Made by a program: the position numbers and the translations under genes. From Rubripirellula sp. (lineage in GTDB: Bacteria > Planctomycetota > Planctomycetia > Pirellulales > Pirellulaceae), in the NCBI GenBank assembly GCA_965216875.1, contig OZ244207.1, forward strand, positions 192,001 through 256,000: a stretch of 64,000 bases of DNA. Direction: 5' to 3'. Shown here piece by piece: positions 40,551-55,234 of the stretch (positions are counted from its first letter, which is position 1; each line of letters begins with the position of its first letter). Under the pieces are notes generated by a model. It worked only from the letters and a program-made list of their open reading frames with translations, was not told the origin of the DNA and searched no databases.

Positions 40551-43058
40551 ATGAACAACCGAATCGTTTTGACAGCCCTCTTTGCTTGGGTTTTCAGCGG
40601 ATGGGTGCATGCAGACGATGCCCAAACGCTGGCCAAGATCGACCAGCAACTGAAGCAAGTGCAGTCTTTTGAATTCGGTCAAAGCGGCAACCCCGCGCAA
40701 GACCTCGAGCGCACGCTTTTTCAATTGCCGGCCGATTCAGCACTGCGTGCAGAGGTCGAACAGAAACTGATCGATGCATTGGACGGAGCCAACAACGTCG
40801 GACGCGGTGTCATTTGTCGCCAGCTTCGAGTGGTGGGGACCGACCGTTGCGTGCCAGCGGTTGCGAAGTTGCTTTCCGACGAAGACGCTTCAGCCTTCGC
40901 GCGGTACACGCTTCAAGGACTCGGAAGCGAAACCGCATTGGGTGCAATGCACGAAGCACTTCATGACGTGCCCGATAACCTCAAACTCGGCATCTTAAAC
41001 TCGTTGTCCGCGCGCGGCTACGAACCGATGCTCAAAGATTGTGTCGACTTGATTGAATCCAAAGACGACAACGTCGCGACCGCAGCGGCCCGCGCCCTCG
41101 GGCGGCTCGGAGGCCCGAGGGCAATATCGACGCTGGCCGATCGACGCGCAAATGCCAGTGCAACACTCGCGGCCGAAATCGACCTCGCTCTATTGGGATG
41201 CGCTGAACAGTTGCTAGCCGGCGGCAAAACCGATTCGGCCGCGAAGATCTATCAACAACTGTATGGCCGCGATGGCTTTCAGCTGGCCGGGTTGAAAGGC
41301 CTCGTTGCTGCACGGCCCGATGACGCCGCGAGCCTGTTGGTCGGTGCGATGCGCAAAGAGGATGCCAGGCTTGCCGCGTTCGCAGCCAACTCAACGCGGT
41401 TAGTTCCTGGGAACGAGGCGACAGCAGCCTTTGTTTCGACGCTCGACATGCTGCCCGAAGGAACCGCGGTTGTACTGATCAAGGCGTTAGGCGAGCGAGG
41501 TGATGCGGCGGCTGCACCCGCGATCGCGGCTGCTTCGAAGAGCCCCAGCCGCGAGGTTCGGTTTGCTGCCTTGGCGGCACTCGGTGGTCTCGAAGGTAAC
41601 GACGCTGCCGACGCGTTGCTCGGGTCGGCAATGGATGATGATCCAACGGTTCGCAGCTTGGCCCGTGCAAGTTTGGCCAAGATTCGAGGCGTCAATTCTT
41701 ATCTCGCAACGATGGCTCAAGGTGGCAATGAAGACCGCGCTGTCGAGGCGATCGCAGCATTCGCGTCACGCGGCGCCACGGACCAAAACAAACTGTTGTT
41801 TGCGTTGGCACGATCCGAAAACGCCAAAAAGCGTGTGGCTGCCATCAACGCGCTCGGTGTGATCGGCGATTCGACGACAGTCGGTCAGTTGGTTGAGTTG
41901 CTACTCGCCTCAGGCAATGCAGAAGACTTAGCGTCCATCGAAGCCTCCTTGGGACGCGTGCTAGGCCGCATCAGCGATGCGGACGAACGAGCAGAGGTTT
42001 TGTTGACCGCCATGCCTCGAGCTTCGGGTGCCGCGAAACCTGCGCTGGTCCGTCTGCTTGCTCGCGCCGGAACGACGGACGCATTGGACGCCGCGCGTCG
42101 GTCGCTGAAAGATGCTGATGCAGCCGTTCGCGTAGGTGCCGTCGAGTCACTTGCGAGTTGGCCCAATTCCGATGCGGCCGACGATCTGGTGCCGTTGATC
42201 GAAAATGCCGCCTCGGCCGAGTTGAAGAGAGTTGCCCTCGATGGATACGTCCGCATCGCTTCCGAATCCGAAGATCCTGCAAGCATGTTCTTGGGGCTGC
42301 TCGATCGCATACGAAGCGTCGACAGCAAAAAGGTTGTGCTCAATGAGATCGGTTTGAATTGTGAATCATTCGAAGCGCTCGACGCGACCATGTCATTGTT
42401 TGGCAACCCGCAACTCAAAGCGGTTGCTGGAATCGCCGCGATTCGAATCGCGTACAAGCTGCGTCGTCAGCATCGAGATCGAATCCGAGAGGTGCTGCAC
42501 GAGATTCTGGCTCGCGTCGATCATCCCGATGTGCAACGACGCGGACAAGACGTAATTAACGACCTCGACAAGTACGAAGATCACATTCTTCGTTGGGTCG
42601 CTATCGGTCCATTTGTGGACAATGAAATCACCAGCGGCGAAGTCAGTTACAAGACGGTCTTTGCACCTGAGCGATCCGACACGTCTGACTTGAAATGGAA
42701 GCCGCTCACTTTGGGCATTGGCAGCTGGGACATCAACCTTGAATCGACCTACGGCGCAAAGGACCATTGCTCGGCATTTGTCCGCACGATGATTTGGTCG
42801 CCCGTTGATCAATCCGTTCAAGTTGAAGGGGGTGCCGACGATGCGCTCAAGATTTGGGTCAACGGCAAACTCGTGCACGAGGGCTGGCGCACCGGTGGTT
42901 GTGAGCCGCGTCAGATCAAAGTGCCCACGAAACTCACTAAGGGCTGGAACGAACTAAAGCTCAAGGTCACCGACCACGAAGGAGGGTGGCAGTTTGGTTG
43001 CCGCGTTCGTAAGCCAAACGGCACCAAAGTCGACGACCTCAAATACGAAGCACGCTAA
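40551..43058 (+). CDS. Secreted HEAT-repeat protein with C-terminal beta domain
   Basis: Many Ala/Leu HEAT units (AARALGRLGG, VRFAALAALG), ADDALKIWVNG. Confidence 0.8.
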   Translation: MNNRIVLTALFAWVFSGWVHADDAQTLAKIDQQLKQVQSFEFGQSGNPAQDLERTLFQLPADSALRAEVEQKLIDALDGANNVGRGVICRQLRVVGTDRCVPAVAKLLSDEDASAFARYTLQGLGSETALGAMHEALHDVPDNLKLGILNSLSARGYEPMLKDCVDLIESKDDNVATAAARALGRLGGPRAISTLADRRANASATLAAEIDLALLGCAEQLLAGGKTDSAAKIYQQLYGRDGFQLAGLKGLVAARPDDAASLLVGAMRKEDARLAAFAANSTRLVPGNEATAAFVSTLDMLPEGTAVVLIKALGERGDAAAAPAIAAASKSPSREVRFAALAALGGLEGNDAADALLGSAMDDDPTVRSLARASLAKIRGVNSYLATMAQGGNEDRAVEAIAAFASRGATDQNKLLFALARSENAKKRVAAINALGVIGDSTTVGQLVELLLASGNAEDLASIEASLGRVLGRISDADERAEVLLTAMPRASGAAKPALVRLLARAGTTDALDAARRSLKDADAAVRVGAVESLASWPNSDAADDLVPLIENAASAELKRVALDGYVRIASESEDPASMFLGLLDRIRSVDSKKVVLNEIGLNCESFEALDATMSLFGNPQLKAVAGIAAIRIAYKLRRQHRDRIREVLHEILARVDHPDVQRRGQDVINDLDKYEDHILRWVAIGPFVDNEITSGEVSYKTVFAPERSDTSDLKWKPLTLGIGSWDINLESTYGAKDHCSAFVRTMIWSPVDQSVQVEGGADDALKIWVNGKLVHEGWRTGGCEPRQIKVPTKLTKGWNELKLKVTDHEGGWQFGCRVRKPNGTKVDDLKYEAR

Positions 43059-43130
43059 GCAAGCTGAGCTTAGCCGCATTCCGCCCACTCCAACTACGTT
43101 TTCGCAAACCTCCATCGCAAGAGCCACAAG

Positions 43131-44126
43131 ATGCACCGTGTTTTTCTCTTTGCCGTAACGTTCATCAGTTTGATCCCTTTCGTCGATGCTGCGGGGCCGG
43201 CGATTACTGACCCCGCAAAGACTGGAATCGATTTTCAGATCCAGGGGGAATACTCCGGCGAGCTGCAATCGGATGAGGGCAAGGGTAACTTTGGCGTGCA
43301 GGTGATCGCTCAGGGAAACGGCAAGTTCAAAGCGGTCGCCTATCGTGGTGGACTTCCCGGCGACGGTTGGGATGGCAAAGACCCGCTGCGCATTGACGGA
43401 GAGTTTGCACTGCAAGAGGACGGCACGCTCGTGATTCAAGGCGAGCACGGGACGGGAACGATCGACAGCGGAGTTCTGTCGATCGATCTCGGGGACGACG
43501 GCACAGTCAACGGCAAGCTCAAGCGAGTCGTTCGCAAGAGTCCGACGCTAGGCAAGGCGCCGCCCGAAGGGGCTGTAGTGCTCTATGCGGACAAAGCGGA
43601 CGCGGCGAAGTGGAAGGGTGGCAAAGCCGATGAGGACGGGCACCTAATGCAAGGCGTCACCAGTAAAGAGACGTTCGGCAGTCACCAGTTGCACGTTGAA
43701 TTCCGCTTGCCGTACATGCCCGAAGCGCGCGGACAAGGTCGCGGCAACAGTGGCTGCTACGTGCAAGGAAAGTACGAAGTGCAGATGCTCGACTCGTTCG
43801 GACTCGAAGGCAAGATGAACGAGTGCGGCGGAATCTATTCGGTCAGCGGCGTCGCAACCAACATGTGTTTTCCGCCACTGTCATGGCAAACCTACGACAT
43901 TGACTACACTGCAGCGAAATACGACGGTGACAAGCGGGTTGCCAATCCTCGTATCACGGTGCGGCACAACGGCATCGTGATTCATGATGACATCGAACTT
44001 CCAGGCGAACGAAACACAACAGCAGCGCCGCAGCCAGCTGGCCCTGAACCAGGCCCCGTGTACTTGCAGAATCATGGCAACCCCGTCCGCTACCGCAACA
44101 TCTGGGTCGTCAAAAAAGACGAGTGA
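43131..44126 (+). CDS. DUF1080 (3-keto-disaccharide hydrolase-like) protein
   Basis: LHVEF, GNSGCYVQGKYEVQMLDS, WQTYDI, LQNHGNPVRYRNIW. Confidence 0.88.
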   Translation: MHRVFLFAVTFISLIPFVDAAGPAITDPAKTGIDFQIQGEYSGELQSDEGKGNFGVQVIAQGNGKFKAVAYRGGLPGDGWDGKDPLRIDGEFALQEDGTLVIQGEHGTGTIDSGVLSIDLGDDGTVNGKLKRVVRKSPTLGKAPPEGAVVLYADKADAAKWKGGKADEDGHLMQGVTSKETFGSHQLHVEFRLPYMPEARGQGRGNSGCYVQGKYEVQMLDSFGLEGKMNECGGIYSVSGVATNMCFPPLSWQTYDIDYTAAKYDGDKRVANPRITVRHNGIVIHDDIELPGERNTTAAPQPAGPEPGPVYLQNHGNPVRYRNIWVVKKDE

Positions 44127-44133
44127 CGTAGAC

Positions 44134-44982
44134 GTAGGCCGGATCAAGGAGCGACAGCGACACAGATCCGGCACGCTGAGCAGACGGCGCTAGCCGAGGG
44201 CCCAACGCTCAATCTTCCGCAATCGTTGTAGGCCGGATCAAGGAGCGACAGCGACACAGATCCGGCACGCTCCACCGAAGACTAAGCCAGAAGGTGGACG
44301 AGTGCCAATGAGCCGCGACCGCGTAAGCGGCCGGGCCCTGTCCACTCTTTCGTGGCCAATCTCTTTTCCCAACGTTCGCCACACTCCTGAGCCGACGGCG
44401 CTAGCCGCGGGCCCTACGCTCAATCTTCCGCAATCGTTGTAGGCCGGATCAAGGAGCGACAGCGACACAGATCCGGCACGCTCCACCGAAGACTAAACCA
44501 GAAGGTGGACGAGTGCCAATGAGCCGCGAACGCGTAAGCGGCCAGGCCCTGTCCACTCTTTCGTGGCCAATCTCTTTTCCTAACGTTCGCCACACTCCTG
44601 AGCCGACGGCGCTAGCCGCGGGCCCTGCCCTCAATCTTCCGCAATCGTTGTAGGCCGGATCAAGGAGCGACAGCGACACAGATCCGGCACGCTCCACCGA
44701 AGACTAAACCAGAAGGTGGACGAGTGCCAATGAGCCGCGACCGCGTAAGCGGCCGGGCCCTGTCCACTCTTTCGTGGCCAATCTCTTTTCCTAACGTTCG
44801 CCACACTCCTGAGCCGACGGCGCTAGCCGCGGGCCCTACGCTCAATCTTCCGCAATCGTTGTAGGCCGGATTAAGGAGCGACAGCGACACAGATCCGGCA
44901 CGCTCCACCGAAGACTAAACCAGAAGTTGGACGAGTGCCAATGAGCCGCGAATGCGTAAGCGGCCGGGCCCCATCCACTCTT
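44134..44982 (+). repeat. Tandem 211-bp mosaic of REP-like palindromes (BIME-like)
   Basis: GTAGGCCGGATC-N19-GATCCGGC at 44134, 44228, 44439, 44650 and 44861 (period 211 after the first; last copy has GGATT). Each unit also carries TGAGCCGCGACCGCGTAAGCGGCCGGGCCC and TGAGCCGACGGCGCTAGCCGCGGGCCC. Confidence 0.95.
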
Positions 44983-45094
44983 TGTGTCTTCTCGTGTTTT
45001 TCGTGGCCCATCTTCCCACAAGAACCTCAGCACCATTCGTCCAATTCGATCGATTCGTGGTTCGTCATTGTCAAAAAGCACAACAAGTTCAGCG
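44958..45094 (+). repeat. Dispersed repeat, copy 1 (homologous to 51250-51437)
   Basis: Shared blocks AAGCGGCCGGGCCC, TTTGTGTCTTCT, TTTTTCGTGGC, GTCCAATTCGATCGATTCGTGGTTCGTC, GCACAACAAGTTCAGCG. Confidence 0.85.
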
Positions 45095-45175
45095 CGAAAA
45101 TCCTTAAACATTTCTTGTTGTGTTGTTCGTGCCCAATCATTCAACAAGAAGAGTGATCCCTGCGCGATCCAAAAT

Positions 45176-45204
45176 TTGACAACCCAAATGTCAACGGCGA
45201 GAAT
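45176..45204 (+). promoter_or_regulatory. Candidate sigma70 promoter for the cassette array (Pc-like)
   Basis: TTGACA (45176-45181), 17 nt, GAGAAT (45199-45204), pointing into the array. Confidence 0.5.
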
Positions 45205-45231
45205 GCCCCCGAAGTGGTTGCCACCTAACCG

Positions 45232-45368
45232 GTGAGAATGCTGGGGCGACCAGTGAGAATACGAGGATCAACGCGCGCGTCACCAACCGTACCGAAGGTC
45301 CACTCAGTGAGAATAACCAGCACGACGTATTCTCACCTGTCCAACAGCTGATAAATAAGTTATTTGGA
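45232..45368 (+). other. Putative attI-like primary recombination site
   Basis: GTTATTTGGA (45359-45368) is the exact reverse complement of TCCAAATAAC opening attC1 but is not preceded by an attC hairpin. GTGAGAAT at 45232, 45253 and 45307, inverted at 45329. Confidence 0.7.
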
Positions 45369-45377
45369 CTAACCTCC

Positions 45378-45990
45378 TTGCGAGTGCGCTTCTCAATCAC
45401 TGCTTTGCTCGTGTTGCCTATCGCGGCAGCATTCACGTACGCGTTGTGGTTACGCCTTGCTAATTGGGGACCGCCTGAGAGGAAGACATGCATTGCACAC
45501 GAACACTCCGTCGGACTGGTGCGGGGTTTTGATACTCAAGATTGGGGCCACCACGACGTTGAGCCGGGACAGGGCACTTATCTCACAGGGCACTTATCTC
45601 TATGTTCGAATCTACGGATTGCTGAGCACGACAACGGACAGCACTTCCTATTTGGATTTGGGACTCCAACTTCCCGCGAACGTTGAAGCCGGACAAACGT
45701 TTACCTGTACGCCAGCTAAACGCGCACGCGCAGTATCCGAAGTCGATGTTAACGGCGACTCACTATCGAAACTCACGGAAGGGGAATTCGCTATATTCGG
45801 GTATGCGTACCCGCGTACCGGTTGGTTAGTTTCAGGTTCGAAGGTGACGGCCAGAGTCGCGATCGAACGCATTTCGCGAAAACGGATGTATGCCCAAATC
45901 CAACTTGCTGGTCAATTTGCCCCCGATCTCGGTCCACTTAATATTGATCGGACATTGGTTTTTGATCGCGACCTGGCGAATTCCAAATAA
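45378..45990 (+). pseudogene. Cassette 1: exported hypothetical protein frameshifted by a 16-bp duplication
   Basis: ACAGGGCACTTATCTC at 45569-45584 and 45585-45600. Removing one copy joins ORFs 45378..45686 and 45457..45990 (...EPGQGTYLYVRIYG...). Confidence 0.8.
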
Positions 45991-46073
45991 CCAAGCCATG
46001 AACCGGAGATCGCCATAGCGCGATTGCTGATGGCAACCACATTGGGCGATCCCGGTTATGGCCAACGTTCGCC
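45985..46073 (+). other. attC-like site 1
   Basis: AAATAAC caa GCCATGAACCGG...CCGGTTATGGC caac GTTCGCC. Confidence 0.85.
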
Positions 46074-46098
46074 AACACAAAGCCTCAAACTGCGATTG

Positions 46099-46548
46099 AT
46101 GACCGAACATCGATTGTCGACACAAGATGTGCTCGATTTCTTCCGCGAGTTGCCTCAACACCGTGGTTGTTCGGTAGACGAACTTGACGCCGTTGAGAAT
46201 CAGCTAGCGGTATCACTACCGCAGTTATATCGCGACATGATGCTGCTTGACGCATATCGCCTCTACAACACTGAAATCTTCGTCCCTGTTTCCGAATTGC
46301 ACGAGTGGACACGGACTGCACCCGACGACTTCCATCGCGGTACGATCTGGACACTCTCTCCGAGTGACGTGATCTTTGCGGTTGCCCCCGGTGCAGAGGA
46401 CAACTACTACTTTTCCGCAGACGGGACTGACGACCCGCCGGTGTACGGCTTGTCCCTGAATACAAGCAATCCTTCGACGCCGAATGTTGTCGCTGATACA
46501 CTATCCTTCTTCACTGCTGAGATTCTCAGGTCGTCCCTGAGACTCTAG
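46099..46548 (+). CDS. Cassette 2: SMI1/KNR4 (SUKH) family immunity-like protein
   Basis: GCSVDELDAVENQLAVSLPQLYRDMM...YYF...DDPPVY. First ATG after attC1. Confidence 0.75.
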   Translation: MTEHRLSTQDVLDFFRELPQHRGCSVDELDAVENQLAVSLPQLYRDMMLLDAYRLYNTEIFVPVSELHEWTRTAPDDFHRGTIWTLSPSDVIFAVAPGAEDNYYFSADGTDDPPVYGLSLNTSNPSTPNVVADTLSFFTAEILRSSLRL

Positions 46549-46560
46549 CGTTACTGAACT

Positions 46561-46653
46561 GGCGAACCATGAAATGCACGGGAGGACGGGAGTCGCGTTT
46601 TTTAGTCTGCTTGCAAGCCTTTCGCCCGTCCCCCGTGATTTCTTTCGTTCGCC
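46561..46653 (+). other. attC-like site 2
   Basis: GGCGAAC cat GAAATGCACGGG...CCCGTGATTTC tttc GTTCGCC. Confidence 0.88.
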
Positions 46654-46659
46654 GATGCA

Positions 46660-47196
46660 ATGAACAACTCCTTTTCATTTGTCGTCGTGTTCGGATTACT
46701 CGCATTTGTGTCCGGCTGCAGCGACGCGTCGAGAACCGACGAGCAATACCTTGCTGACTGGCGGAACGCCGAATCTAAAAGCAACGTTTTGCATGAGGGT
46801 GGCACCTGGCATTTCGAATTTGTGTCTGTTCGCCTGTACCGCCACAACTGGGATAACCAATATATCGAATTTCCAATCCTATCGGCGGGGAAGCTAAGTG
46901 AAACCCGTGAACCGAAGGAAGGGATCTTGCTGAGTCCTAGTCAGGTCGACCGCCTAGAAGCAGCAGTAACCGGATCCCACGCAGACACTGGAATCGCATT
47001 GTGCCATTTTCCACATCACGGATTTGTCTTTTTCGACGCTGATGGCGTTCCTGTCGGTAGCGTGGATGTCTGTTTTCTTTGCGGAAACGTTAGGACCATG
47101 CCCGAAGGGTATGCAGAGAGTTGTGATCTGCTCTCTCTTGCTGAGTTGATACATGAAGCCGGTGTTCCACTTCGCAACCCAGAGTGGAAGCACTAG
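46660..47196 (+). CDS. Cassette 3: hypothetical lipoprotein
   Basis: Lipobox FVSGC; C-terminal CHFPHHG...VCFLC. Confidence 0.7.
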   Translation: MNNSFSFVVVFGLLAFVSGCSDASRTDEQYLADWRNAESKSNVLHEGGTWHFEFVSVRLYRHNWDNQYIEFPILSAGKLSETREPKEGILLSPSQVDRLEAAVTGSHADTGIALCHFPHHGFVFFDADGVPVGSVDVCFLCGNVRTMPEGYAESCDLLSLAELIHEAGVPLRNPEWKH

Positions 47197-47197
47197 C

Positions 47198-47287
47198 GGC
47201 GAACCATGGCGTGCACACGAAGCACGGCATAAGATGTTTACAAATGGAAACCGCATGGGCCGTCCCCGGTGACGGCTAACGTTCTGC
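47198..47287 (+). other. attC-like site 3
   Basis: GGCGAAC catgg CGTGCAC...GTGACG gctaac GTTCTGC. Confidence 0.8.
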
Positions 47288-47297
47288 CAATGGAGAT

Positions 47298-47744
47298 TTG
47301 CGTTTGACGCTGAGCCCTGAATCGAAGCGCGACCTTGCAATTGCCGCTGGGGGGATCCTCGCAACGACTTTCTTCGTTTCGTCAAACGGTAACGGACAGA
47401 ATCCGTTCACGGTTCTCCTTGGGATGCTGATTGTCTCCGCGATCGTCTCTGCCATATCTATTCTGCTGTCAAGGCTCGTGCCCACATTAACATTGGCTAT
47501 CGTTGCGAGTATTGTCATTTCGGAACTGGTTTTCCTGCTCTATTTCATGTACAGCGTAGCATCGCGTGGGCATTCAGACCCTCATCTGGCAGAAGCGTTT
47601 TTGCTCCTTCCGATCGTTTTTGCGATCGTGACTTCACCGCTCATCGCGTTGACCGCGTATGGTATAGGACGGATCGCCAATCGCTACTTTTATTCGCATG
47701 ACACAACTTCTGATCTTTCCGATCAGAAAACACCGGCGATGTGA
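47298..47744 (+). CDS. Cassette 4: multi-pass membrane protein
   Basis: GGAG RBS before TTG and about 4 hydrophobic helices. Confidence 0.7.
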   Translation: MRLTLSPESKRDLAIAAGGILATTFFVSSNGNGQNPFTVLLGMLIVSAIVSAISILLSRLVPTLTLAIVASIVISELVFLLYFMYSVASRGHSDPHLAEAFLLLPIVFAIVTSPLIALTAYGIGRIANRYFYSHDTTSDLSDQKTPAM

Positions 47745-47746
47745 AG

Positions 47747-47837
47747 GCAGAACAATGACATGCCCCGAAGGACGCGAGCCAAGCGGTTTGGCAATGGTGA
47801 ATCTTTCTCGCGTCCTCGGTGATGTCCGCCGTTCTGC
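47747..47837 (+). other. attC-like site 4
   Basis: GCAGAAC aat GACATGCCCCGAAGGACGCGAG...CTCGCGTCCTCGGTGATGTC cgcc GTTCTGC. Confidence 0.88.
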
Positions 47838-47844
47838 GACAAGA

Positions 47845-48330
47845 ATGAATCTCACTGTTGCTGCCTTCTTCCTTGCTGCAGTTGGATGCAGCAATCGTAC
47901 AACAACGACGCCCCAAGAGAACGCCTTTGATCCGGCTGCCTATAGACCCGAGATTAGACCGTTTCTACTCCAACTCGACTCATTGGTCGGAAAGTACAAC
48001 TCAGAGGCGCGCGGAATCGAACTCAGTGAGCACGGAGTCGATGGACACCTGAATGATGCTGAAGCCCGTAGATTAGCCGATTTCGCAAATGCGATTATCG
48101 ACGACTTGAACAACCGTTTTGATAGGCCTGTCGCCCGCACGATCGGTGATACTTGGTATCAAGTTCCTTCGCGATTCAACATCACGGAAGCCGAACCACA
48201 TGACGGCATTTCAAGAACGTTCACTGTTTCTCACCTCAATTGCGGCCTTCATGAGTACGATTTCGTCGTTGACGAGGGCCTGGGCATCGTTGTTGCAGAT
48301 CGCTACGACAGCCTGGGCATCAACTGGTAA
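47845..48330 (+). CDS. Cassette 5: hypothetical lipoprotein
   Basis: MNLTVAAFFLAAVGC lipobox at the first ATG after attC4. Confidence 0.7.
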   Translation: MNLTVAAFFLAAVGCSNRTTTTPQENAFDPAAYRPEIRPFLLQLDSLVGKYNSEARGIELSEHGVDGHLNDAEARRLADFANAIIDDLNNRFDRPVARTIGDTWYQVPSRFNITEAEPHDGISRTFTVSHLNCGLHEYDFVVDEGLGIVVADRYDSLGINW

Positions 48331-48335
48331 GGTGC

Positions 48336-48426
48336 GCAGAACGATGCGAAAATACGGAGCGGCGGTGGAGCGATTGTTTCCAATGGTTGGTCAACTCCCG
48401 CCGACCGCACATCGCTACCGTTATGC
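48336..48426 (+). other. attC-like site 5
   Basis: GCAGAAC gat GCGA...CGGCGG...CCGCCG...TCGC tacc GTTATGC. Confidence 0.8.
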
Positions 48427-48435
48427 ATCAAGACA

Positions 48436-48934
48436 ATGGAACTTCGTCCCCAACTTGAGCCTCCGAAGATCGACGAGCAGCTTGCTGCCCGACTCGCAGA
48501 GCTTGCTGCGGACATTGACGGTGCGCGACCCGGCGAATGGGACGAATGGCTGGCTGAATTCAATCAGCTCGCGAATACTTCGATTCCGTTTGAGCACTTC
48601 CAAGGAATCTACGGTGGCGAAGAACATATCGAATGGGTGCGCCGAATATTGCACGATCAACACTCAAAACCTGTTGATGACGTCACGCGTGACGAACTAA
48701 TCGAAATTGTCCGACGTGCCATGCCTCAGAACGGATATTTGGAAGCCGAGGCATACATGGCGGTACTCGACAAAAAATGTCCCGCGATCTGGGGCGTCAA
48801 ACTTGATCTTTTATCCGCCTGACTACGACGACGCCACGAACACTTGGGACGGTGGCCGCATGATGGGTGAATACGATCCCACACCAGAGCAAATCGTGGA
48901 TTGGGCGTTGCAAACTGATTCAAATGATGCATAA
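48436..48934 (+). pseudogene. Cassette 6: bacteriocin (colicin-type) immunity-like protein, frameshifted in an A6 run
   Basis: TRDELIEIVRR in ORF 48436..48822 and NVPRSGASNLIFYP...PTPEQIVDWAL in frame 48707..48934. A5 instead of A6 at 48772-48777 joins them. The stop falls in the attC6 core. Confidence 0.7.
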
Positions 48935-49019
48935 CAAAAAAATGCACCCGAGTCGCGAAGTCGGGCGTATTGACAATTGAGAATCTCTCGTCGCGACCGG
49001 GTGATCTTAGACGTTCTGT
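48929..49019 (+). other. attC-like site 6
   Basis: GCATAAC...ATGCACCCGAGTCGCGA...TCGCGACCGGGTGAT...GTTCTGT. Confidence 0.88.
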
Positions 49020-49022
49020 GAA

Positions 49023-49652
49023 ATGGAGTCTTCGCCCAACGTGACTGCAGGCAAAATCACAATCGCCGTTGTCGTGCTCGGCTTCGCAGTGCTTTATTGC
49101 GAATGGCTAGCGACGATTGTTCCTCCCGAGCATTGGGCATACGGCTTCTGCGTCAATTTTGTATTCCTGGCAGCGTTCACGGCCGTACTCACAACGCTTG
49201 AACTTCCAATCCTCCCAAGCTCGTACTTCACACCTAAATCATTTGAGCGCGAGGGCCGGATCTATCGCTGGACGGGCATCCAGCCATTTCTAGCTTTCTT
49301 GCGGCTTATCGGTTGGGAGCGATTTTGGCGAAAAGCAATTCCGGTCAGGACTGACGTTGCCTCGCTTCGCAAGTACTCTCAATCTACGCGCGGCTCCGAA
49401 GCAGTGCACCTGGTCGCTGCGATCTTTACAGCATTGTTTACGATGACGGTCGCAGTTCGACACTCGTTCGTAGGTACAGGATGGCTGTGGGGATTCAACG
49501 TTCTGGCGAACGCCTACCCAGTGATGCTTCAACGCTATAATCGTCCGCGGGTTGATCGACTACTTCGCCGCCTCGAACGAAAATGCGGTCAGGACAGCAC
49601 AGAACAAAGCGATCGACACGGAGCCGCCGACGGCGCTTTTACAAAAGGATGA
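49023..49652 (+). CDS. Cassette 7: CrtO-like (glycosyl-diaponeurosporenoate acyltransferase-like) membrane protein
   Basis: [39 protein letters not shown] ends inside attC7. Confidence 0.65.
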
Positions 49653-49688
49653 TCGATTGCGGCGGCCCGGTCATCGCAAGCGTTCTGT
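49599..49688 (+). other. attC-like site 7
   Basis: ACAGAAC aaa GCGATCGAC...GCCGCCG...CGGCGGC...GTCATCGC aagc GTTCTGT. Confidence 0.85.
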
Positions 49689-49701
49689 GGCTAAGACGAA
49701 C

Positions 49702-50298
49702 ATGCCGAAACAACTCCCGTCTTGGGTCATCGAACAATCTCTCAACTGGCAGCTCTTCGAATGTTGCGGTGACCAAGACCTGTTTCCGTTTCGCTGTCAC
49801 CAATGCCAACACATTTACGTGCTCTGCTACGAGTGCGACACCCTATACACCGATTTGACGGATCTCTCGCAGCGCCACGCTCCTTTGTGGGACAACTATT
49901 CCTGCACAAATTGCCCCGCCAACTTCGACGACGACTTCATGCGTTCGCCACGGCATCGCATTCCATACACCGACTGGAACAACGCAAACCTGCATCAATT
50001 GCTGGTGGATTGCCCGTTTGAAGACTTGATGCGAATGCTCACAACCTTGAGCGACCAGATTGCGGATCACCTGCGCCGCGGCATGCGCAGCACGGCTGGA
50101 CGTGCGATGACCGAATACCGAAATTTGGCCGAATCAATTATGGTTCACGTGGCGGACGCGGACGATGCCCGTGCAGATGGTTACGATTTGACGGATCCCA
50201 AGGCACTTGCAAACGCGATGGCCTGGCACGACGAACTCCCCAACAAACCAAGCCGCAACTACGCGTTGCTGGGAATCACTGACAGGCTCTTCGCGTAA
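49702..50298 (+). CDS. Cassette 8: Cys-rich putative zinc-binding protein
   Basis: ECC, CHQC, CYEC and CTNC motifs. First ATG after attC7. Confidence 0.65.
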   Translation: MPKQLPSWVIEQSLNWQLFECCGDQDLFPFRCHQCQHIYVLCYECDTLYTDLTDLSQRHAPLWDNYSCTNCPANFDDDFMRSPRHRIPYTDWNNANLHQLLVDCPFEDLMRMLTTLSDQIADHLRRGMRSTAGRAMTEYRNLAESIMVHVADADDARADGYDLTDPKALANAMAWHDELPNKPSRNYALLGITDRLFA

Positions 50299-50308
50299 AA
50301 AAGACGCC

Positions 50309-50399
50309 ACAGAACCATGCGATGAACGGAAGTCGCGGAGTCGTCGTTTTTGACCAATGAAAATCGATCGCCGCGACTCGGTTCTCGCGTCCGTTCCGC
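50309..50399 (+). other. attC-like site 8
   Basis: ACAGAAC cat GCGATGAACGGAAGTCGCGG...CCGCGACTCGGTTCTCGC gtcc GTTCCGC. Confidence 0.88.
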
Positions 50400-50426
50400 T
50401 TGTTATTAGACGATCCAACTCTGCCA

Positions 50427-50711
50427 ATGTCGATGAAAGCAGCATCCACACATCTGACCGCTGGAGTTTTTCTGACTCTGCTGACGGGTTGCGCGTTGTT
50501 CAGCGAACCTAAAATGGAATTCCCGCGTGGAAGCCCCATTTCGCACGATCAGATCCCTGAGGCGTTACGACTGAAGCTTGACCTTCCACTTAATGCATCG
50601 GTGGAACGATTCGGCGATGACCCGGATACGGCGTCGTATAGGATTGAGCAGCCTAATGGCAGTGTCCGATACATCGGATCAAATGGAGAGCCTCAAGGCG
50701 GTATCATGTAG
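50427..50711 (+). CDS. Cassette 9: small lipoprotein
   Basis: Lipobox LLTGC. Start 50427 or 50433. Confidence 0.65.
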   Translation: MSMKAASTHLTAGVFLTLLTGCALFSEPKMEFPRGSPISHDQIPEALRLKLDLPLNASVERFGDDPDTASYRIEQPNGSVRYIGSNGEPQGGIM

Positions 50712-50718
50712 AGGGAAG

Positions 50719-50809
50719 GCGGAACCATGCGATGAACCGAAGTCGCGGGGTCACCGTTTTGGACAATGGAAAATCAATCGCCGCGACTCGGTTATCGCGA
50801 CCGTTCTGT
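50719..50809 (+). other. attC-like site 9
   Basis: GCGGAAC cat GCGATgAACCGAaGTCGCGG...CCGCGACTCGGTTATCGC gacc GTTCTGT, with two unpaired extra bases in the left arm. Confidence 0.9.
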
Positions 50810-50836
50810 TGCAAGAGCTAATGAAACCAAACTGAC

Positions 50837-51187
50837 ATGATTCGACCCGATGACTTTGAGATTGAAATTGGCCACAACGATCGAGGCACATTCGTTCGCG
50901 TAAAACACAAGCCAACCAACAACGAACGTCTTCAGGAATCTGTACCGGAAAATGAGATTGGGCGTCGTCGCGAATCAATGATCACCGAACTCCGCGGGCT
51001 ATTGTTCGGACCCAAGGATGTCGTTTTCGACACGGGAAGATCTGTAGGCGGTGACTTCATTCGTGTTCGCCACTTGCCGACGGGAATGGAGCGTTCCGCT
51101 ATGCGTCGCGAAAGCACGCACGAAAATCTGCTGGATGCTGTGCTCGAGGACGTGTATTCGGATAGGCTCCGAGAGGATGCAACCTAA
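50837..51187 (+). CDS. Cassette 10: small protein with two release-factor-like VRxxHxPT repeats
   Basis: FVRVKHKPT and FIRVRHLPTG, no GGQ. Confidence 0.6.
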   Translation: MIRPDDFEIEIGHNDRGTFVRVKHKPTNNERLQESVPENEIGRRRESMITELRGLLFGPKDVVFDTGRSVGGDFIRVRHLPTGMERSAMRRESTHENLLDAVLEDVYSDRLREDAT

Positions 51188-51228
51188 CTGGCGTTGCCCT
51201 TTAGCCGGCCACCGCCAACGAAGAAGCA

Positions 51229-51255
51229 ACAGAATCATGACATGAACCGAAGCGG
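51229..51255 (+). other. attC-like site 10 (left half only, disrupted)
   Basis: GCAACAGAAT catgacATGAACCGAAGCGG runs straight into the dispersed repeat. Its core matches the GTTCTGTTGC ending attC9. Confidence 0.7.
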
Positions 51256-51437
51256 CCGGGCCCTATCCACTTTTTGTGTCTTCTTGCGTTTTTCGTGGCT
51301 CATCATCCCAAAAGAATCTCAGCACGAGTGCTCGCGCAACAGTTCGCCATTTGTCCAATTCGATCGATTCGTGGTTCGTCTTTGTCGCCTGGATGAGGCA
51401 GCCACAAGAAACACGAAAAGGCACAACAAGTTCAGCG
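51250..51437 (+). repeat. Dispersed repeat, copy 2, with imperfect inverted repeats (MITE/REP-like)
   Basis: Homologous to 44958-45094; TTGTGTCTTCTTGCGTTTTTCGTGGCT ... AGCCACAAGAAACACGAAAAGGCACAA. Confidence 0.8.
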
Positions 51438-51469
51438 ATTGCCGATTGCTGCCCAAGGGAGTTCCCCCG

Positions 51470-51560
51470 CGACAACCATGTGATGTTGACGGAGCGGCGG
51501 TGGTCGCCGCTCACAAATGGAAAACAAATCACCGCCGCACGCACATCGCTACCGTTCGCC
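51470..51560 (+). other. attC-like site 11
   Basis: CGACAAC cat GTGATGT...GCGGCGGTG...CACCGCCGC...ACATCGC tacc GTTCGCC. Confidence 0.85.
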
Positions 51561-51578
51561 GAAGATGCAAATAGCACT

Positions 51579-52028
51579 ATGACGGATCACGAAATCGATA
51601 AACTTATCACTGAATTTCAGACGAAGCATCCCTCGATCATGGATGGGGCTCACGTCCGACGAGATCCCGTACATACCATTGAGCGTCTTGCCGAAATCGA
51701 GCGGGAGCACGGGGTCGTACTTCCAGCGCAATACAAACGCCATCTGTGCAAGCACGGCGCCGGAGATTTCGGGCACACGTGGATCTACGCTCCCGAAGGC
51801 AAAGAGGGGGCGGGGTTGTGGGAGGATTACTACTACATGCCTCAGCACAAGGGACGCTTCCTACCAATTTCCGATAACGGCTGCGGCGATCACTACGGAT
51901 TTCGCATTGTCGATAATGTCTGCGCGGACTTCATCTGCTTTGCCGACCACGAACAGGATTACGAGTTGTCCGATGCTGTCTATCCAGACTTCAATACGTT
52001 TATCGCAGAGGTTGGGCTATCCAGCTGA
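51579..52028 (+). CDS. Cassette 12: SMI1/KNR4 (SUKH) family immunity-like protein
   Basis: IERLAEIEREHGVVLPAQYKRHL...G, FLPISDNGCGDHYGF, DHE, DFNTFI. Confidence 0.82.
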   Translation: MTDHEIDKLITEFQTKHPSIMDGAHVRRDPVHTIERLAEIEREHGVVLPAQYKRHLCKHGAGDFGHTWIYAPEGKEGAGLWEDYYYMPQHKGRFLPISDNGCGDHYGFRIVDNVCADFICFADHEQDYELSDAVYPDFNTFIAEVGLSS

Positions 52029-52045
52029 TTTGCGATTCACACAAC

Positions 52046-52140
52046 GGACAACAACGCGTTGCACCAGAGTAAGGGCGTCTGACATAATCGAGATTCCGGT
52101 CGCAATGAACTCCCTTGCCCGGTGAACGCCATCGTTATCC
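52046..52140 (+). other. attC-like site 12
   Basis: GGACAAC aac GCGTTGCACC...AAGGG...CCCTT...GGTGAACGC catc GTTATCC. Confidence 0.82.
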
Positions 52141-52170
52141 GAACTCGCAACCAGGCCGACTGATCCGTAC

Positions 52171-52584
52171 ATGTTTGAATTTCACGGCTGGGCGTCAATT
52201 CACTATCACGTCTACGAGATTGATGAGCGGAAGCAGGATTCGCTTTGGCGTGATTTGACCGACTACGTCGCTTCAAACTGCTCACGTTTCGCGACACTCA
52301 CGCGCTACAACGGATGCGATTCGTGTCACACCGCTGGTCAGCGCAACCATCGCACCTCCCACCCCTTTGAGCTGTTTGAGTGGATTGCACTTCACGCACC
52401 CGGTTCATACGGACTGCTCTATGTTCGCGACGATGAGGATGACATGCGTGGCTCGGACTTCACCAATTGCTTTCGGGCGTGGCGACTCTGCAGAGGGATA
52501 TTTGCTGAACTCGACGATCCCTTTCTCTCACCTGCGATACCCGTCGTGGAAGACCCCACCGATCTCGATCGTGACGATTTTTGA
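52171..52584 (+). CDS. Cassette 13: Imm7-like polymorphic-toxin immunity protein
   Basis: MFEFHGWASI...G.RNH...APGSYGLLYVRDDED...DPFLSPAIPVVED. Confidence 0.78.
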   Translation: MFEFHGWASIHYHVYEIDERKQDSLWRDLTDYVASNCSRFATLTRYNGCDSCHTAGQRNHRTSHPFELFEWIALHAPGSYGLLYVRDDEDDMRGSDFTNCFRAWRLCRGIFAELDDPFLSPAIPVVEDPTDLDRDDF

Positions 52585-52587
52585 TTC

Positions 52588-52678
52588 GGATCACCATCCA
52601 ATGCACCCGAGCGGCGAAGTCGGGCATTTTGACAATGGACATTGACTCGTCGCCGCCGGGTGATTGTTGCCGTTCGCC
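52588..52678 (+). other. attC-like site 13
   Basis: GGATCAC catc CAATGCACCCGAGCGGCGA...TCGCCGCCGGGTGATTG ttgcc GTTCGCC. Confidence 0.85.
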
Positions 52679-52731
52679 GACTTACCGAGTGATGGCAACC
52701 TCTCGATTCAACTGCAACTCCTTCTGAACCA

Positions 52732-53094
52732 ATGCCGGACGATGTGATTGCGACCATCAAGCGTTTCATCACTGACTACCGCCGCGGTAGCCATACGAGC
52801 TTGGAACTTGTTGATGTCACCTTCCAAACGCTCGTCGACAACGATGCATCCGACGAGCTCGTCAATGAGGTTCTGTTTCTGATGCCTGATAGCGTGATTT
52901 CCGCGTTCGAACAACGGATGGGCGAGATGGTGGAAACTGCGTTCTTTATTCCAAACAAACGCCTCGGTGACCACCGATCGGACGACGAAGTCCGTCGTGA
53001 TGCTTTCGCGCGTCAACCGATACTCCGGCGAATTCATCACGCATTCTTACGTCCGTTACTGCTACGTCGTTATCGTCTCGAACATGGATGGTGA
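52732..53094 (+). CDS. Cassette 14: hypothetical protein
   Basis: 120-aa ORF between attC13 and attC14. Confidence 0.55.
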   Translation: MPDDVIATIKRFITDYRRGSHTSLELVDVTFQTLVDNDASDELVNEVLFLMPDSVISAFEQRMGEMVETAFFIPNKRLGDHRSDDEVRRDAFARQPILRRIHHAFLRPLLLRRYRLEHGW

Positions 53095-53174
53095 CCTGGC
53101 AACATTTGCCGTGGCTGTGGCACACCGATACGATGGAAAGTGTTGAGCAATGGAAGACCAACCCCGCTGCAGGC

Positions 53175-53263
53175 GGCGAATCATCGCGTGCACACGAAGG
53201 CCTGTTGGTTCGTTTGCTCAAATGGAAAGTCAACTCACGAGCCTCGGTGACGGGGCGTTCATC
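53175..53263 (+). other. attC-like site 14
   Basis: GGCGAAT catcg CGTGCAC.CGAAGGC...GCCTCGGTGACG gggc GTTCATC. Confidence 0.8.
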
Positions 53264-53278
53264 GAATGAGAACAGGCC

Positions 53279-53857
53279 TTGGCAGATGCAATAGAAAATC
53301 GATTCAGGCCGCGTTACAGCTTGCTTCTGTTTTGCCTTGTCTGTTTACTGATCTCAATGCTTGTCGCCTACACTGGAGTCTTGAGGCAGATCACTCCTCC
53401 GGCACATGAATTTGTTGGCTTTCCAGCCGATGCGCCACGCCAAGACGGTTTCATCGCTCCGGGACAGCTAACGCATGTTGTCAAGCAAGATGTTTTCGCT
53501 CCAAATGGATTTGATGTGCGTCTGACAGTTCGCATTCAGCTGAACCATGATCGCGTTTTTTCACATTCCATCGACGGATGCCTAATGGAAATCGAGCATG
53601 TCAGCTATAGCCTTTACGACAGCCTGTCGGTCGGTGATCCGACGTTCGTGGAGGAGTTTGTCGCGGGTGAGCTCACGCGATTCAATGGCACGTCGGCTGT
53701 CCGATCCGTTGAGCTGTTAGACTTTAAGACACTTCCAGCACCGGGAACGAACTCCGGTGGCTCGGCAAACTCCATGGTCATCGATGAACCATCCGATGCA
53801 CCGAAGGACCGAACGTCGCGTTCTGAAGATGGAAAATCAATCGCCGGTCCTCGGTGA
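53279..53857 (+). CDS. Cassette 15: membrane-anchored hypothetical protein
   Basis: RFRPRYSLLLFCLVCLLISMLVAY N-terminal anchor. ORF reads through most of attC15. Confidence 0.6.
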   Translation: MADAIENRFRPRYSLLLFCLVCLLISMLVAYTGVLRQITPPAHEFVGFPADAPRQDGFIAPGQLTHVVKQDVFAPNGFDVRLTVRIQLNHDRVFSHSIDGCLMEIEHVSYSLYDSLSVGDPTFVEEFVAGELTRFNGTSAVRSVELLDFKTLPAPGTNSGGSANSMVIDEPSDAPKDRTSRSEDGKSIAGPR

Positions 53858-53872
53858 TCGCGTGCGTTACCC
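53783..53872 (+). other. attC-like site 15
   Basis: GATGAAC catc CGATGCACCGAAGGACCG...CGGTCCTCGGTGATCG cgtgc GTTACCC. Confidence 0.88.
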
Positions 53873-53883
53873 ATGGTGAGATT

Positions 53884-54207
53884 TTGTTGAGACTCTTGAT
53901 TCTTCTTGCAGTTCCGCTTTGTGTGTTGGGGTGTACGACGGTCAGATCCCCCAAATTCAAGGTTGATACTCGCGACGAGATGCATCATGCAATCGTTGAT
54001 GCGATACCTACGGGGACCTCAGTCAAGCATGCGACGGAAATCATGGAATCCGCTGGTTTTGACTGCGTTTTCATCGAGTCAGGAAGTTTTTCTGAGGACG
54101 CAGGGATCATTGGCGATGAACGCGACTACCCATTCGTAAAAGACGCACGATTTCTTAAGTGCACGCGCATAGACAGCACAGGAATGTTGACGTCAAATAG
54201 TTGGTGA
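53884..54207 (+). CDS. Cassette 16: lipoprotein, probably 3'-truncated (no attC follows)
   Basis: LLRLLILLAVPLCVLGC lipobox. Ends 46 bp before the convergent gene with no attC. Confidence 0.55.
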   Translation: MLRLLILLAVPLCVLGCTTVRSPKFKVDTRDEMHHAIVDAIPTGTSVKHATEIMESAGFDCVFIESGSFSEDAGIIGDERDYPFVKDARFLKCTRIDSTGMLTSNSW

Positions 54208-54253
54208 GCGTAGCTGGCTACGGGAGGAGGTTTGGTGCGTGCAAGCACACACC

Positions 54254-55234
54254 CTACTTTCTGATGACGGGGGCCAGGTAGATATCTCGGTACTTCACGT
54301 TCGTGTGATCACCTTGCAGATGAATGGGCCCTGGTTGGGTTGGGTCGGTGAAGACGGCACCACCGGTTGGCCCAGGAACCGGTTGATTGTCGATCACTTT
54401 TTCGCCGTTTAAGACAACGGTGACGTGGCGATCAACCAGCGTCAAATCGTAGGTCTGCCACTGCCCGCCTGCGCGGCCTGCATTTTTCGACGGTGGGATG
54501 CTGCCGAAAATCGCGCCGACCCCTTGGATGCCCTGCATCCGACTGTCGCGATCAACCACTTGCGCTTCATACATGCCGCGTAGGTAGACGCCACTGTTGC
54601 GATCTTTTTCGACCAGGAATTCGATGTGCAACCAGAAGTCTTCAAAGACCGCTTCGGTGCGAAGATTCGCGTACGCGCCGGTCGCGCTGAAGTCGGTCTT
54701 GGGTGTCGTGTTCACAAGCTGGCCGTCTTTCACGCTCCAGCCGTTGATCTTATCGGACTCGTGCGGCCGCCAGCCTGTCAGGTCTTTGCCGTTGAAAAGC
54801 GAAATGGGATGCCCGAACCGAACCTTCGATAGATCGGGAGGTGTTGACGGCATCGGTGGGATCTTTTTTCCCTTCAGCCGATCCCGTTTCACCGTTCCAT
54901 CTGGCGAAACCGCTTTGATTTCTCCGACGAGTGCTCCATCGACAAGCATCACTTGTACTGTTTTGGTGTCTTTCTGCTTTCGGTTTTGGCGAAGCGTGAA
55001 GGACAACTGTCCTTGCGAATGCTTGACGTCTTGATGAGGTCCGTCGGGCCCGACGTGCAATCGCATTTTGACAACCGGGGCGCCATCGGATTCCGTGATG
55101 CTTAACCATGCTGGCGTGCCCGATTCCAAAGTGATAGACCAATCGCCAATCAGGTCGTCTGCCGATGCGGACAGTCCGAACGAACAAGCAAGCAGGACGC
55201 AACCAAGGACGTTTCGAATGGGCAAGTGATTCAT
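54254..55234 (-). CDS. DUF1080 (3-keto-disaccharide hydrolase-like) protein
   Basis: SLFNGKDLTGW, NSGVYLRGMYEAQV, WQTYDL, LQGDH. Confidence 0.9.
   Translation of the reverse strand: MNHLPIRNVLGCVLLACSFGLSASADDLIGDWSITLESGTPAWLSITESDGAPVVKMRLHVGPDGPHQDVKHSQGQLSFTLRQNRKQKDTKTVQVMLVDGALVGEIKAVSPDGTVKRDRLKGKKIPPMPSTPPDLSKVRFGHPISLFNGKDLTGWRPHESDKINGWSVKDGQLVNTTPKTDFSATGAYANLRTEAVFEDFWLHIEFLVEKDRNSGVYLRGMYEAQVVDRDSRMQGIQGVGAIFGSIPPSKNAGRAGGQWQTYDLTLVDRHVTVVLNGEKVIDNQPVPGPTGGAVFTDPTQPGPIHLQGDHTNVKYRDIYLAPVIRK

Follow-up and report, generated by a model that had tools for sequence, protein, structure and literature searches.

How can an integron cassette array retain a promoter and a docking site for incoming cassettes when no integrase gene stands beside them? 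The question is raised by a stretch of 64,000 nucleotides from Rubripirellula sp., here called the window, in which a preliminary description had noticed an attI-like entry site and a Pc-like promoter and had proposed either a capture platform served by an integrase in trans or an integron that had lost intI. The two alternatives are compatible and both are favoured, with intI probably lost at the locus and the remaining IntI of the genome probably serving it in trans. By definition the locus is a CALIN; in function it is most likely, with a probability of about three in four, a satellite integron platform served in trans. CALINs are common, and this array, though without intI, still has a recognisable promoter and a docking site, together with sequence signs of recent cassette traffic, so that such arrays may be working satellites and not relics.

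The Pc and attI block and its four copies

The conserved block covers positions 45164 to 45361 of the window on the forward strand (about 195 bp by blastn, alignment and profile). The motifs lie where they had been reported, with GTGAGAAT at 45232, 45253 and 45307 and inverted at 45329, the variant GCGAGAAT at 45197, and TTGACA at 45176, 17 nt before GAGAAT at 45199. The octamer is present 135 times in the 8.26-Mb single-contig genome and forms clusters (at least two within 150 bp) at only four places, which are the four copies of the block; the clustering is therefore beyond chance, and a Poisson estimate for a cluster of four comes to about 1e-7 per genome. A cross-species profile run against the genome likewise returns exactly four copies (E ≤ 2e-42; next match E = 1), namely copy A in the window, B (C1:1147839-), C (C1:1814725-, adjoining intI) and D (C1:3542181-), with a 187-nt core that aligns without gaps at 88.2-92.5% identity. 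One copy thus lies upstream of the only intI (C1:1815045-1816538), while three, the window's included, head arrays without intI.

Each of the four arrays begins directly behind a block. An iterated profile search of the genome gave 88 attC-like hits at E ≤ 1 (78 at E < 1e-3), and 88 of 88 fall in the four arrays (A 15, B 7, C 39, D 27), whose limits were set once the hits were known; the reversed genome gave one. The profile was seeded with 12 sites of the window, whose own scores are thus fixed by construction, and median scores are 35 bits in B and 39 in D against 53 and 51 in the other arrays. Array A (45359..53872, forward strand) holds 15 of the hits, 14 of them at E < 1e-3, and each of its first nine cassettes starts with the exact complement of its own R''. 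With 15 attC-like hits by our own profile, as opposed to IntegronFinder, and no nearby IntI, array A is classed as a CALIN; no intI adjoins it, as would be needed for a complete integron. Cassette 1 (45359..46066, forward strand, attC at 45985-46073) carries a gene (45378-45990) whose reading frame is broken in two by a 16-bp tandem duplication at 45569, and its protein has a 32% identical relative in array C. Cassette 2 (46067..46646, forward strand) encodes an SMI1/KNR4 family protein (PF09346, E = 3e-7). The cassettes within 46067-52671 include several for immunity-type proteins, namely two SMI1/KNR4 and one Imm7, and another matches CrtO acyltransferase. Two internal cassette duplications, 95% and 97% identical, are found in array C (C1:1790500-1814725).

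The attI simple site is placed at 45347..45365 on the forward strand, with a degenerate L box (45347-45353), a 5-nt spacer and an R box that starts at the crossover G at 45359. Homology among the four copies stops at this G|TT crossover, both in blastn and in the alignment, and a joint in a related strain, discussed below, falls at the same base; the R box thus carries G|TT where the first cassette begins. The 10-bp match to the core of cassette 1 claimed earlier holds in the sense that the bases from 45359 are the reverse complement of those ending at the first attC R''. The window's L box, GCTGATA, is a poor L match, and clearer L boxes occur in related loci (G025, G001, L094); copy D carries A instead of the crossover G. 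An attI should also adjoin its cognate intI, which is not the case at the window locus but is the case for the 88% identical copy C, and it should be free of an attC-type bottom-strand hairpin, as the block is. Homology to the copy beside intI, together with conservation across genera, thus supports the attI and Pc readings, and the block is probably a real integron docking site with a promoter.

That the region is instead a decayed attC or a chance cluster of motifs is refuted by the alignment of the copies and the attC profile scan, and its probability is practically negligible. The block does fold modestly (MFE z = -1.9, with 9 of 200 shuffles as good), which would suit a decayed attC, but no single R-L hairpin results and the genome scan gave no attC profile match in the block itself; moreover, there are four ungapped copies, one beside intI, with homologues beside intI in other genera. 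Two of the findings named beforehand as fatal to the attI reading, an attC-like fold and a lack of homologues at the head of other arrays, failed to appear, homologues heading all other arrays of the genome. Rfam gave no match within 43000-55000.

The putative Pc (45176..45204, forward strand) consists of sigma-70-type hexamers directed into the array, a -35 TTGACA (45176-45181) and, after a 17-nt spacer, a -10 GAGAAT (45199-45204) that doubles as the first repeat and matches only four of six -10 positions. A promoter scan of 44100-45500 found this single site (10 of 12 positions matching), a result that is weak when taken alone since shuffles average 0.5 sites and one match is within chance. 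Among 16 blocks from eight genomes and one metagenome contig, picked by a downstream pattern, 15 have a -10-like hexamer preceded at 17-18 nt by a TTGAC-like one, by a regular expression composed after the blocks had been viewed, while the spacers vary freely; the same arrangement is found at only 34 of 2783 GAGAAT sites genome-wide. The -10 reads CATAAT in G282 and TATAAT in G019 with unchanged spacing. The Pc of the block is presumably transcribed.

The integrase gene and its probable loss in this and related genomes

The preliminary description had recognised no tyrosine recombinase, and the window indeed holds no PF00589 match, all six in the genome lying elsewhere. A search of the genome for IntI shows one integron integrase gene, that of locus C (C1:1815045-1816538; TIGR02249 414 bits against a cut-off of 265), about 1.58 Mb from the window array. 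Its open frame of 497 aa contains PF00589, an IntI-type insertion and motifs that we take to be the catalytic ones, and residues 117-215 match VchIntIA (2a3v; Z 15.4, rmsd 1.5 over 96). By title, the closest relatives of this IntI are from Stieleria, Roseiconus and Rubripirellula. The layout of locus C is divergent, with the crossover about 320 bp upstream of the intI start codon.

At the three other loci the place of intI is taken by a REP-like repeat tract. In the window the tract spans 44134..45163 (unstranded, its start set by eye) and is colinear with its counterpart at locus C, which lies just 3' of intI and begins about 50 bp past the intI stop. Neither locus A (tblastn, blastn) nor locus B yielded an intI remnant; in copy D, codons 1-34 of intI survive (76% protein identity) and run into the tract that lies 3' of intI, and the fusion point is a near-repeat of about 8 bp that in C occurs twice, once at each end of a 1449-bp span. 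From the tract upstream of the orphans and the 34 codons at D it follows that the orphans are duplicated integrons minus intI; the simplest history would be duplication of the whole integron followed by deletion of intI, and this order of events is what we infer. A and B carry the tract right up to the block, with retained homology starting just before the -35 hexamer and with upstream junctions that are similar but by now diverged to about 72% identity in the alignment. They lie 910 kb apart in inverted orientation and possibly descend from one deleted copy. By eye, D is without the segment that in C holds a candidate intI promoter (TTGACT-N17-CATAAA). Composite REP-like units at 44134-44990 and 54220-54262 flank the ends of array A, and their GTAG-type motif has about 129 exact copies genome-wide. 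A copy of the tract like that upstream of attI is also fused to an attC left arm at 51229..51437 (forward strand), and this makes a gene-less stretch inside array A (51229-51470) that is partly present in metagenome run X6 as well.

Orphan or decaying block copies recur in other genomes of the family. The blocks of relatives were found through IntI neighbourhoods and a pattern, a blastn-type search of 60 relatives being too insensitive (three weak 30-nt matches in two genomes). The 24-nt pattern matches 8 of 401 family genomes, its own included, and one short contig in a metagenome scan; the related genomes are not independent by kinship and several are fragmented. Homologous blocks abut intI in L087, L088, L089, L091, G231, G250 C2 and G282. 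G282, assembled as one contig, has six blocks, all with arrays, beside three intact intI genes, one truncated, one internally deleted and one reduced to codons 6-50. Blocks without an IntI match in the 6.7-8 kb upstream are present in G061 (C131, four attC), G250 (C1, two to three attC) and G194 (C122, where the contig ends at the crossover, in a genome that is 89% complete and has no IntI); another G061 contig, C67, is short. G001 (84% complete) gives ten matches to its own block, probably nine loci as two contigs overlap, of which three have large broken intI pieces, one a remnant and five no intI, and its intI frameshifts may be assembly errors. Some relatives speak against a general pattern, since G025, G016 and G231 each show a single block, and it adjoins intI.

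Another account would make the intI-less Pc and attI module a mobile non-autonomous unit, spread for instance via the REP tract and seeding new arrays. The deletion junction region common to A and B despite their distance and inversion would suit it, as would about 85 nt upstream of the block shared (by eye) by two G061 orphans and the three Y1_Tnp genes of the genome, and for A and B it is compatible with the best explanation. However, no Y1_Tnp gene lies near any block, and the graded intI remnants in D, G282 and G001 argue for duplication of whole integrons and subsequent decay; there is thus little probability that such a unit is at work. Duplication followed by intI loss is the reading kept here.

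Some further features of these genomes were seen in passing. In G250 no attC hit is seen in 12.7 kb at the intI-linked attI (L193, C2), and it is the orphan (L192, C1) that heads the two to three mentioned above. Four arrays of G001 (L073, L074, L080, L081) contain repeated elements with tyrosine-recombinase genes 26-31% like IntI, and at L076 an attI copy sits between two attC runs. Four copies in G025 considered as attI turned out to be an insertion sequence, leaving G025 with one attI; the element (L032 / L054-L057) is 1.7 kb long, its four copies are 99% identical and lie in REP-like repeats, and one is just downstream of intI. In G001 and G002 the 1.5 kb that follow the best match to the upstream flank gene are free of attC hits, and synteny therefore does not date the insertion.

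Probable cassette exchange at an array without its own integrase

The explanation given the three-in-four probability above supposes that an integron with the order repeat tract, intI, Pc and attI, array existed in several copies, of which three would have lost intI by deletion while retaining Pc and attI. The IntI of the intact locus C would then recombine cassettes at all attI copies in trans, and the genome would have up to four promoter-proximal first positions fed from one cassette pool. According to PMC2095811 (in its available part), an attI is recognised only by its cognate integrase.

Two observations point to such traffic. Cassette 2 of array A and cassette 2 of array C, the intI-linked one, are identical in an unbroken run of 590 bases bounded by recombination points, while the two blocks have 22 mismatches in 187 positions and neither cassette 1 nor cassette 3 is the same in both arrays. 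No other cassette is shared in near-identical form among the four arrays. In run X1, which is probably the source of the genome and so not independent of it, cassette 2 forms its own unitig with a depth of 1988 against 670 and 815 for its neighbours. Because the shared cassette is in position 2, its identity can also be explained by attC x attC insertion without attI.

The second observation touches the first position itself. A contig of metagenome run X6 joins 45255-45358 to 47281, where cassette 4 begins, and its attI part has three differences from A in 104 nt, while B, C and D each differ at 11. The different first cassette is either a gain in this genome or a loss in X6. A change of first cassette requires attI x attC recombination, and attI-A has therefore recombined since the strains split, if the X6 contigs represent one locus; another of them covers the intI-less flank, and none of the X6 contigs listed bridges this flank and the 45358/47281 joint. 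A skip of 52160-52636 in X6 was rejected as a cassette loss since it lies off the cassette boundaries (52134-52671), and loose ends at 45361 in run X5 were left uncounted as they fit the starts of arrays B and C. Orphan array A thus appears to be still gaining or losing cassettes, and the IntI of locus C presumably did the recombining. Some copies of the block may be dead, given the crossover of D and the low attC scores of B and D.

An array whose attI became inert after a recent deletion of intI, with differences that are older or arose at attC only, would be a dead relic. The shared cassette not being first, the frameshift in the gene of cassette 1 and the mutated crossover in D all fit this, and Xanthomonas strains with a common intI lesion usually had identical arrays in the available part of 10.1101/2025.06.18.660453. 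Against it stands X6, where the flank is likewise without intI but another first cassette joins at the exact crossover. The A/B junction, at about 72%, makes the deletion look much older than the 100% identical cassette, and the R'/R'' pairing of the first nine cassettes is perfect. A dead relic is accordingly improbable, and a platform served in trans is the reading carried forward.

Several known systems come close to it. Cury et al. 2016 (PMC4889954) list intI loss as one origin of CALINs, place half of the CALINs in genomes encoding IntI and propose cassette exchange between elements; in the available text, the search for attI and Pc was limited to exact matches of classes 1-3, and expression and recombination of CALINs are left open. 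Like these elements, the window locus is an attC cluster without a neighbouring intI. CALINs are defined there by attC only, whereas all four arrays here have retained attI and Pc, and the orphan attI itself appears to recombine. That CALINs can be mobilised in trans, and that intI decays in Xanthomonas, is described in the same partial source as above (10.1101/2025.06.18.660453). A further parallel is Acinetobacter baumannii AYE, in which a fourth attI1 lies beside a deleted intI1 and capture is attributed to IntI1 in trans (PMC7093585, available part). Both loci combine an attI with a deleted intI and proposed trans capture. The AYE case, so far as described there, concerns one cassette at a partly deleted attI of a class 1 mobile integron in a resistance island, whereas full Pc and attI blocks head separate chromosomal arrays across several genera here. 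Multiple intI per genome, with a functional gene and a decayed duplicate, were described by Nemergut et al. 2008 (PMC2426708), which in its available part deals with intI only and not with attI. Our literature search met no report of multiple attI with one intI in planctomycetes and nothing under 'orphan attI'; supplementary IntegronFinder tables, outside the search, may list these arrays. The available parts of PMC8876359, PMC3607928, 10.1101/2022.02.06.479319 and PMC12901181 contain no direct precedent.

The upstream repeats and the N-terminal extension of IntI

The four direct G[CT]GAGAA[TC] repeats (45197, 45232, 45253 and 45307) and the inverted one (45329), spanning 45197..45336 on the forward strand, are putative accessory IntI-binding boxes. 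Their layout is kept across relatives, down to the pair of one direct and one inverted copy about 52 and 30 nt ahead of the crossover, and their motif changes in concert (GAGAA, GATAA or GGTAA) and follows the IntI clade. In G282 the GAGAA type stands beside one IntI clade and the GATAA type beside another (SH-aLRT 99 and 97), a contrast drawn from 19 rows, a quick tree and labels assigned by eye. The repeats resemble the R'' boxes of the same genome, and in several relatives they resemble or equal the local L box. A contrast of variable columns (0/42 versus 32/145) was set aside since the motifs had been chosen with the alignment already in view.

The integrase of locus C has about 119 additional N-terminal residues, modelled as four helices (pLDDT 84). 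The four best structural matches of this extension are N-terminal/core-binding domains of recombinases at Z 6.6-7.8, all below 8 (Cre: Z 7.8, rmsd 4.5 over 98; VchIntIA: Z 6.9, rmsd 3.9 over 88), so that the modelled fold can be described as resembling a core-binding domain at a Z below the decisive level. Pfam SAM_1 matched the extension below its cut-off (E = 0.0046), Foldseek with the two-domain model gave no match at E ≤ 0.001, and BLASTP of the extension against the next IntI domain found nothing. An IntI group about 120 aa longer, in a deltaproteobacterial clade, is mentioned in the available part of PMC2426708; these long IntIs are likened to ours by length alone.

The repeats could instead be operators of a host transcription factor that controls Pc, with the block kept for expression only. 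The first repeat is the -10 element, the spacing of 21-35 nt would suit a cooperative regulator, and CRP acts at the Pc of V. cholerae according to a partly available source. Against this reading, each repeat type of G282 stands beside a different IntI clade and the L box equals the local repeat in several relatives, but G282 is a single within-genome contrast to which plain linkage to intI contributes too. A host regulator is the less likely reading, with perhaps a minor share of the probability. Integrase sites are plausible from sequence and are favoured over it, and we lean slightly towards IntI binding the repeats, perhaps via its extension domain.

In attI1, DR1 and DR2 are IntI1-binding enhancers, and most of 30 environmental attI families are without repeats (PMC3146285, available part). 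Like attI1, the window block combines a simple site with additional box-like repeats upstream; unlike it, the block spreads five repeats over 140 bp, four of them oriented like L and one like R, and the first of the five overlaps the -10. Locus C is itself a sedentary chromosomal integron, with its divergent intI, attI simple site and 39 attC hits. The window locus departs from that type in having no intI, an attI region of about 190 bp with five repeats, and an IntI, encoded at C, with the N-terminal addition.

More tentatively, and with the odds against it, these features could belong to a distributed integron, in which one IntI with a second DNA-binding domain and a repeat-coded attI would serve several platforms around the chromosome, may switch Pc off while recombining through its hold on the repeat at the -10 element, and would make loss of intI with attI and Pc kept a selected trait. 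If so, several expressed first positions would be had at the cost of one integrase, and many planctomycete CALINs would be live satellites. The four natural attI variants and one integrase form a ready test set, and the repeat-rich attI together with the extra IntI domain suggests a testable way in which an integrase could tell its own attI from others. The repeat region contains one further conserved motif, ACCGAAGGT, at 45291-45299.
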